Shown here in pieces: positions 15,751 through 16,042 of a stretch of 64,000 nt of DNA. Numbering within the stretch: position 1 is the stretch's first letter; every line of letters starts with the position of its first letter. The notes beneath the pieces were generated by a model. The model searched no databases, had not been told where the DNA came from, and was given only the letters and a program-made list of their open reading frames with translations. The position numbers and the translations under genes are program-made. Origin of the DNA: a virus (lineage: Duplodnaviria; Caudoviricetes); the IMG/VR virus record IMGVR_UViG_3300013947_000022, positions 96,001 to 160,000 of that record; one strand, given 5' to 3'.

Positions 15751-16042
15751 CGAGGAGTAGCGCAATTATTAGAGCGGCGGTCTCTGGAATTTTGGACTCT
15801 GTATTGGAAACTTTACAGTGAAACGTGTCAAAATCGGTGGAACTCTTAGTCCCTTAAATTAAGACAATACCGAGCCAAGCCTTGAAAGACAGGAAGGTGT
15901 AGAGAGCAGATGGCACGAGCCTAAACGATTTTTTCGCATGGTTGTGGTGTGCTCCAATCTACAAGATTTTTTAAATCTGTTATAGCAATATAACGTGTAG
16001 AAAGAAAACCGCAGGTTACGGGTGAGAGTCCCGTCTCCTCTG
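15751..16042 (+). tRNA. amber tRNA (anticodon CTA, Gln-like) interrupted by a group I intron
   Basis: CGAGGAG/CTCCTCT acceptor, GCGGT/ACCGC stem; exons give CT-CT|A-AA; weak 1:72 pair and G73. Confidence 0.85.
15786..16004 (+). mobile_element. group I intron (IC3-like, no ORF)
   Basis: 5' exon ends in U, intron ends in G; IGS GGA; core AATACCGAGCCAAG and GAAGGTGTAGAGAGCAGA..GTGCTCCA, resembling the cyanobacterial tRNA-Leu intron as recalled. Confidence 0.88.

Follow-up and report, generated by a model that had tools for sequence, protein, structure and literature searches.

Group I introns of the IC3 subgroup are found in the anticodon loops of tRNAs. The IC3 intron of cyanobacterial and plastid tRNA-Leu(UAA), which has relatives on several phage contigs (L010, L012, L011, and L007), shows a P1–P9 architecture and is inserted within the anticodon between positions 34 and 35. 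The exon part of its P1 helix consists of three base pairs including a U.G pair, its 3' end reads AAG|AAAA, the P2 and P9b loops are both GAAA, and P8 contains a receptor-like motif. The IC3 introns of Azoarcus-type tRNA-Ile(CAU) and Agrobacterium tRNA-Arg(CCU), of which L002-L004 and L014 represent examples from phage contigs, are inserted after position 36. They consist of a minimal core of about 200 nt with a conserved GUGUAGAGA...GACGGC region, a P3/P7 pseudoknot, and the P7 strands ACUA/UAGU.

Suppressor tRNAs with the anticodon CUA are known from gut phages using genetic code 15, such as the Zeta group of crAss-like phages and the Lak phages, which read TAG as glutamine in only a part of their genomes and carry the respective gene in a tRNA cluster of a TAG-poor region (PMC7886860; 10.1101/2021.08.26.457843; PMC12386605). 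The suppressor genes published from these phages are uninterrupted. There are also recoded phage genomes with TAG or TGA reassignment in which no suppressor tRNA was detectable (PMC7886860, PMC12386605). Moreover, Lak megaphages contain "enigmatic" tRNA introns which do not represent ribozymes (Devoto 2019, PMC6784885). In a full-text literature search, we found no suppressor tRNA described as containing a group I intron.

Here, we analyzed a tRNA(CUA) gene with such an intron in a 64-kb stretch of phage DNA (the window), which represents bases 96001-160000 of a 215,374-bp IMG/VR virus record (99% complete according to CheckV, 34% G+C). Outside of suppressor genes, the nearest relatives of the intron are those of the tRNA-Leu(UAA) type (nhmmer E values of 1e-11 to 1e-12), with which it shares the overall architecture, the three-base-pair exon part of P1 with U.G, the 3' end, the P2 loop, and the motif in P8. 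It differs from them by an insertion site one nucleotide further 3' (35/36 vs. 34/35), by the lack of an 11-nt receptor motif in P5, and by a GCAA instead of a GAAA loop in P9b. Moreover, its host gene codes for the stop-codon suppressor of a recoded phage, whereas theirs code for sense tRNAs. One of these relatives, a UAA tRNA with an IC3 intron at L010:8575-8850, differs from a normal class-II tRNA-Leu in that its variable loop is short. With the Azoarcus and Agrobacterium types, the intron shares the minimal core, the conserved region, and the pseudoknot, but its P7 strands are AGCA/UGCU. Like the code 15 suppressors, the tRNA has a CUA anticodon, and its gene belongs to a tRNA cluster in the TAG-poor part of a genome that is only partially recoded, but it is split by an intron. 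It further resembles the interrupted tRNA genes of Lak phages in belonging to a huge recoded gut phage and in a presence/absence polymorphism of the insert between strains. However, the Lak-type inserts, like three further, tRNA-shaped ones in the tRNA cluster of the window, consist of 47-125 nt without a ribozyme and need protein enzymes for removal, whereas the insert described here represents a complete group I ribozyme as judged from its sequence.

Results

The Split tRNA(CUA) Gene

The gene occupies positions 15751-16042 on the plus strand, where a group I intron of 219 nt separates a 5' exon of 35 nt from a 3' exon of 38 nt (Table 1). These coordinates and the anatomy of the gene agree exactly with those of a preliminary description. 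The 5' exon is collinear with intron-less orthologues from sister phages (L042:9463-9497, L043, and L045). After joining the exons, we obtained a 73-nt cloverleaf tRNA (cta) that was accepted by ARAGORN and contains the previously noted loop CU-CUA-AA, a mismatched 1:72 position (C1.U72), and G73. The interrupted gene was reported neither by ARAGORN, using the default and the intron mode and also presenting the region in isolation, nor by the Rfam tRNA model, as had been anticipated for standard tRNA finders. Between a tRNA-Ile gene and the suppressor gene, we observed an 8-bp inverted repeat (TCGACGCA...TGCGTCGA) surrounding about 85 nt (window 15630-15727), and the motif GTCGAG is also present upstream of the suppressor gene in the sister loci.

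Table 1. Positions of the split suppressor tRNA gene, the elements of its intron, and further features of the phage (window coordinates unless marked as genome).
Feature	Position	Strand	Description
5' exon	15751..15785	+	acceptor 5' strand, D arm, anticodon stem 5' strand, C32 U33 C34 U35; ends GGUCUCU
Intron	15786..16004	+	219 nt; starts GGAAUUUUGGA, ends GUAGAAAG
Internal guide sequence UUUUGGA	15790..15796	+	GGA pairs with exon UCU (P1); UUUU pairs with 3' exon AAAA (P10)
P3 5' strand CGUGUC	15824..15829	+	pairs with 15912-15917 (GGCACG)
P7 5' strand GAGCA	15904..15908	+	pairs with 15950-15954 (UGCUC); pseudoknotted with P3
P8	15919..15942	+	CCUAAA...CAUGG tetraloop-receptor-like motif; cf. 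CCUAAG/UAUGG of other IC3 introns
P9 three-way junction	15958..16001	+	P9 (UCUACA/UGUAGA), P9a hairpin, P9b hairpin with GCAA loop
Terminal guanosine (omega G), 3' splice site	16004..16004	+	invariant in four homologous introns
3' exon	16005..16042	+	AAAACCGC...CUCCUCUG; A36 A37 A38, anticodon stem 3' strand, variable loop, T arm, acceptor 3' strand, G73
11-bp hairpin followed by UUUCU	16051..16078	+	kept in all five sister loci
Further split tRNA genes in the cluster	9615-9733, 11851-12002, 14779-14975		Pro UGG, class-II Leu-like, Glu UUC; anticodon-loop inserts of ~47-125 nt
TAG-rich ORFs, mainly homing endonucleases	genome 12243-13256, 19700-23143, 30222-31238, 88995-90008, 201674-202912		loci L195-L208

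The predicted tRNA shows an unusual elbow region. Its T loop reads UGAGAGU and its D loop AAUUAUUA, and the canonical G18 G19 and U54 U55 C56 are absent, which are typical nucleotides of tRNAs, if not strictly defining ones. The intron-less orthologues contain an identical T loop and a D loop differing by one base. Because more distant intron-bearing homologues (L281, L287, and L298) have canonical GG and UUCGA loops, the non-canonical elbow would represent a derived trait of the sub-lineage. These homologues also encode the CCA end, which is not encoded in the split gene of the window; therefore, maturation and charging of a tRNA combining such an elbow with a missing CCA cannot be presumed.

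Searching the genome, we found no second CUA anticodon arm whose context resembles a tRNA, no additional tRNA hit, and no genes for a release factor or a GlnRS/GluRS-type synthetase. The split gene is the sole source of amber suppression visible in this genome, and because there is no other CUA tRNA, its splicing would be obligatory for the expression of the recoded genes. The classical determinants recognized by GlnRS, as established for the identity of E. coli tRNA-Gln, comprise U35, G73, and a 1:72 pair that is weak or mismatched. We take U35, G73, and C1.U72 of the split tRNA to fit this classical glutamine identity, and the tRNA is probably charged with glutamine. The tRNA body itself shows no recognizable derivation from the tRNA-Gln(UUG) of the clade.

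We also considered the remaining three split tRNA genes of the cluster (Table 1) as candidates for group I introns or CUA decoding and rejected them, since their inserts are far too small and none of them has a CUA anticodon. Similar inserts are present in the sister loci L041-L045. In the tRNA cluster of one sister phage, the stretch L044:4111-4259 matched the RAGATH-33 RNA with 119.4 bits (cut-off 120.4), and the same stretch in other sister loci (e.g., L041:4129-4248) represents a tRNA-Ile(GAU) gene with a 23-nt insert according to ARAGORN.

Structure of the Intron

The Rfam model Intron_gpI (RF00028) matched positions 15775-15975 with 34.8 bits and an E value of 3.4e-7 (2.8e-8 for the whole genome). 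This score is lower than the curated gathering cut-off of 50 bits, which is an operational and not a biological criterion, and control IC3 tRNA introns from phage contigs likewise stayed below this value, namely an Azoarcus-like tRNA(CAU) intron with 45.9 bits, two tRNA-Leu(UAA) introns with 47.9 and 43.5 bits, and a tRNA-Lys(CUU) intron with 38.2 bits. We assigned the helices P1, P2, P3, P4, P5, P6/6a, P7, P8, P9, P9a, and P9b by hand and found that all pairs form except for two U.U oppositions in P2; P6 is short. The minimum-energy fold of the intron independently recovered P2, P4, P5, P8, P9a, and P9b. Thus, the claim of a 219-nt group I intron following U35 is borne out by the Rfam match, the helices, and the intron-less orthologues (see below), and the insert is, by its sequence and pairing pattern, a complete IC3-like intron.

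The internal guide sequence is complementary to the ligated exons UCU|AAAA without any gap. In P1, the sequence UCU|GG pairs with UUGGA, resulting in a wobble pair of U35 with G9 of the intron at the 5' splice site and in pairing of the intron nucleotides GG with UU. The three exon pairs of P1 (GGA/UCU) and the possible P10 helix (UUUU/AAAA), which were both part of the preliminary description, can be read directly from the sequence, and the terminal G was found at its predicted place. The P10 strand is conserved in the homologous introns only as UU. The partner of the motif in P8 is likely the GAAA loop of P2 (15807-15810), to which it is predicted to dock.

For a comparison within the family, we aligned the intron with ten other IC3 tRNA introns from IMG/VR (alignment A1, n = 11). 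The P1–P8 structure was paired to 87% in this alignment, compared to 32-45% if the partner strands were slid by 1-3 columns. Changes on both sides were observed for 31 of the 45 pairs, and no shuffled alignment reached the observed covariation score. Five of the six P3 pairs show double changes across the family, whereas P7 is paired to 100%, with invariant GC/AU pairs and two covarying ones. All eleven introns contain the U.G pair at the 5' splice site, and the other two pairs between exon and guide covary with the anticodon-loop sequence of the respective host tRNA. The columns that are invariant in the family are also present in this intron. From these features, we infer that the intron is self-splicing. 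The 219 nt contain no ORF, and this copy does not encode a homing endonuclease.

Intron-Less Alleles in Sister Phages

Sister loci were identified by a search with the ORF located downstream of the tRNA gene (16577-17071), which yielded five related phage contigs with lengths of 150-219 kb; the amino acid identity was about 85%. L042 (9463-9535), L043, and L045 contain the same tRNA gene in an uninterrupted form at the syntenic site, directly 5' of the same 11-bp hairpin, which is probably a terminator or a 3' processing hairpin. These orthologues read GGUCUCU-AAAACCGC with the anticodon CUA (join GGCGGUCUCU-AAAACCGC, junction context GGCGGUCUCUAAAACCGC) and scored 48.9 bits with the Rfam tRNA model (cut-off 29). 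They differ from the joined exons by three nucleotides, which represent one D-loop base and a compensatory change from C:G to U:A in the T stem. The junction is confirmed by these sequences and, with it, the earlier proposal that the CUA anticodon is formed only by removing the intron from between U35 and A36. Splicing after U33 or at another G, which we also considered, is excluded for this gene by the sequence of the orthologues. Intron-plus alleles (this phage) and intron-less alleles (L042, L043, and L045) of the same tRNA therefore represent a presence/absence polymorphism. Most of the stretch is present in five public sequencing runs, and of four runs covered here, two from one study yielded contigs, all of which contained the intron-plus DNA form and none the joined form; one of these contigs carried a T>C exchange at 15859 in the P5 loop.

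In the sister locus L041 (9447-9536), the tRNA(CUA) is of a different type, which has a long variable arm together with U1.U72 and G73. A tRNA(CUA) of this type is also present in L044 (9236-9547), where it is split by a different group I intron of about 222 nt after U33, whose guide sequence UUAG|GGAC matches the exon sequence GUCU|CUAA. Because quite different tRNA(CUA) genes are found at the same locus in sister phages, the suppressor gene appears to have been replaced within the clade.

Homologous Introns in Other Phages

To retrieve homologues from IMG/VR, we used a pattern from the P5/J5-4 region which is common to this intron and that of L044. Three contigs of 182-217 kb (L281, L287, and L298) contain tRNA(CUA) genes with homologous introns of 219-221 nt at the same site (CUCU|...|AAA). 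The four pre-tRNAs were aligned from end to end (alignment A2) with 84% column identity and compensatory changes in P3, P7, and P8. The introns of these contigs are 69-70% identical to that of our phage, and the respective phages are distant relatives with structural protein identities of 38-44%. Comparing L287 with L281, the introns are 96.8% identical and the tRNA exons 77.3%, a discordance that is, as far as the alignment tells, a signature of recent intron transfer. A metagenome contig (L377) contains a tRNA(CUA) gene with a long variable arm that is split at the same site by an intron of about 679 nt; this homologous intron carries an ORF for an HNH homing endonuclease (Pfam PF01844, E 3.7e-6). 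In total, at least six suppressor genes contain introns at two different sites, one after U33 and the others at 35/36. That the site is kept in phages of only 38-44% structural protein identity could alternatively be read as a benefit of the intron.

The 18-nt anticodon arm of the predicted spliced tRNA, CGGCGGUCUCUAAAACCG, was found at 50 IMG/VR loci (L145-L194) in at least 30 different tRNA(CUA) bodies, many of them on large phage contigs, and therefore represents an unusually conserved target. Its recurrence points to either convergence on an efficient suppressor arm or an exchange of arms. Further searches with the patterns TCTCTGGAATTTTGGA and CGGCGGTCTCTGGAA, which were based on the guide or the exon junction, resulted in chance hits only, as did a search of metagenomes with the pattern GGTCTCTN{2,10}AWWTTGGAC, apart from L377. 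No homologue of the intron was found in the other loci by nhmmer, and GenBank phages contained no close homologue of the locus and only short matches to the intron core. Spread of the intron within the genome was considered as well and rejected, since the intron occurs only once in this genome and is absent from the sister genome G002.

Recoding of TAG in the Phage Genome

The coverage of the genome by long ORFs increased from 0.78 to 0.875 when TAG was treated as a sense codon, and the longest ORFs increased from 1170 aa to 2708 and 1666 aa. Most of the gain was located at 16-56 kb, 88-96 kb, and 200-215 kb of the genome, while the ORF coverage of the 64-kb window hardly changed. In-frame TAG codons occur in 47 of the 83 ORFs of at least 250 aa. 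The most TAG-rich ORFs code mainly for homing endonucleases (LAGLIDADG, HNH, GIY-YIG, and DUF7487/DUF559; see Table 1), and Intron_gpI matches were observed eight times in the whole genome. We also noticed an ORF for a reverse transcriptase (L205, Pfam RVT_1, genome 207594-209330) with three in-frame TAG codons; via cDNA, this enzyme could in principle allow a precise loss of introns.

To assign the meaning of TAG, we compared the ORFs codon by codon with the whole sister genome G002. The tally was confined to the dominant plus-strand ORFs because antisense ORFs confound the comparison by synonymous leucine changes appearing as exchanges between TAG, CAA, and TAA. Opposite the in-frame TAG codons of this phage, G002 contains TAG (35), CAA (21), CAG (5), and GAA (4), and any further codon occurs no more than twice. 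Glutamine accounts for 26 of the 44 sense codons at these positions, compared to a background of 3.1%, and in the reverse direction, 15 of about 30 TAG codons of G002 are located opposite a glutamine codon of this phage. CAA, which is two changes away from TAG, is more common at these positions than CAG (21 vs. 5). The minority codons in G002 represent Glu (5), Lys (3), Leu (3), and Trp (2). These values support the reading of TAG as glutamine in this phage, as initially assumed. In an alignment of a RecD2-like helicase (L200, genome 72952-75573) with PDB sequences, using X at TAG positions, the aligned region contained no TAG position and consequently gave no residue information. At residues ~534-545, this protein reads LRDQRQLPSVG, where Deinococcus RecD2 reads VGDTDQLPPV, placing a codon translated as Arg at a conserved Gly.

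Discussion

We consider it most probable, at roughly 85%, that the sole amber suppressor tRNA gene of this phage is split by a self-splicing IC3 intron representing a mobile or selfish element rather than a dedicated regulator. After transcription, the guide UUUUGGA would align both exons, and the U.G pair would mark the position following U35 at which an external guanosine attacks. In the next step, the released 5' exon would attack after the terminal G at 16004, resulting in the 73-nt tRNA with the loop CUCUAAA, and end trimming and CCA addition would be expected from host enzymes. The mature tRNA would read the in-frame TAG codons in 47 of the 83 long ORFs as glutamine. As a mobile or selfish element, the intron would reside in the anticodon arm GGUCUCUAAAACC, a target that is conserved and common to many phage suppressors. 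Because its host gene is essential, the intron would remain splicing-competent, and selection on this gene to keep the ribozyme active would sufficiently explain the compensatory substitutions. We infer both the charging with glutamine and the mode of intron spread from the comparisons presented above.

In the preliminary description, splicing was proposed to gate or time the switch to reading TAG as glutamine. With a slow or conditional reaction, depending, e.g., on the GTP level, Mg2+, or a phage protein, the mature suppressor would accumulate only late and thereby time the translation of late genes with TAG as glutamine, which agrees with the position of the tRNA gene in a TAG-poor part of the genome with the TAG-rich genes clustered elsewhere, with the need for splicing in the absence of a second CUA tRNA, and with the recurrence of introns in the suppressor genes of several diverged phages. 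However, in the sister phages G002, G003, and G005, the gene for the same tRNA lacks an intron, and because G002 keeps in-frame TAG codons at the same positions, the code switch works without it. The intron further shows marks of mobility, such as the presence/absence polymorphism, the HNH ORF in L377 and the much higher similarity of the L287 and L281 introns than of their exons, it consists of a minimal IC3 core without any sequence hint of a sensor, and introns of the same type occur in sense tRNAs (Leu, Lys, Arg, and CAU) of other phage contigs. The proposal therefore found no support, since intron-less alleles serve equally recoded sisters, and we regard such a gate as unlikely. The same holds for the assumption that the intron is kept to make suppressor maturation conditional on guanosine nucleotides, Mg2+, or a factor of the phage or the host, or to delay it by slow splicing, which we likewise doubt. 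If it were true, a ribozyme would set the moment at which TAG changes from stop to glutamine and would thus represent an RNA-level checkpoint on the code switch of the phage. The split anticodon may also shield precursor or gene against anticodon nucleases or rival homing endonucleases.

The spliced tRNA might also insert another amino acid at TAG, e.g., Lys, Glu, or Trp, since its body is not recognizably derived from the tRNA-Gln(UUG) of the clade and some TAG codons are located opposite Glu (5), Lys (3), Leu (3), and Trp (2) codons in G002. This is quite improbable in view of the glutamine frequencies of 26/44 and 15/~30 in the two directions of the comparison against a background of 3.1%, the preference for CAA over CAG, and the presence of U35, G73, and a mismatch at 1:72, which fit the GlnRS determinants known from E. 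coli. Finally, the low Rfam score, the U.U mismatches in P2, the odd elbow, and the missing CCA might suggest a tRNA pseudogene with a non-splicing intron, with TAG being read by a suppressor of the host or an undetected phage tRNA. The helices of the catalytic core and the family-invariant columns are intact, however, and the odd elbow is also found in the intron-less orthologues; because it is common to them, we regard it as a property of a working tRNA lineage. Moreover, in-frame TAG codons are present in 47 of the 83 ORFs of at least 250 aa, no other suppressor was found, and contigs from two different runs contain the same allele, with a single substitution in a loop. A dead gene is therefore highly improbable, and the reading of a functional suppressor tRNA hosting a mobile self-splicing intron is preferred.

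Introns of the IC3 kind are well known from tRNA genes, but a suppressor tRNA as host gene is new and of consequence. For the reports of recoded gut phages with missing suppressors, this locus provides one concrete cause, namely a ribozyme-split tRNA gene that is skipped by the tRNA finders; annotation of alternatively coded phages should therefore include a search for tRNA halves around group I cores. Because at least six suppressor genes contain introns, which are located at two sites and in one case carry an HNH ORF, our comparison suggests that the highly conserved anticodon arm of phage suppressors is a recurrent landing site for introns. The intron-plus and intron-less alleles of one tRNA offer a natural pair for tests of timing. 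In this phage, RNA-catalyzed splicing would be required for translating the genes with TAG codons, the two longest ORFs among them.
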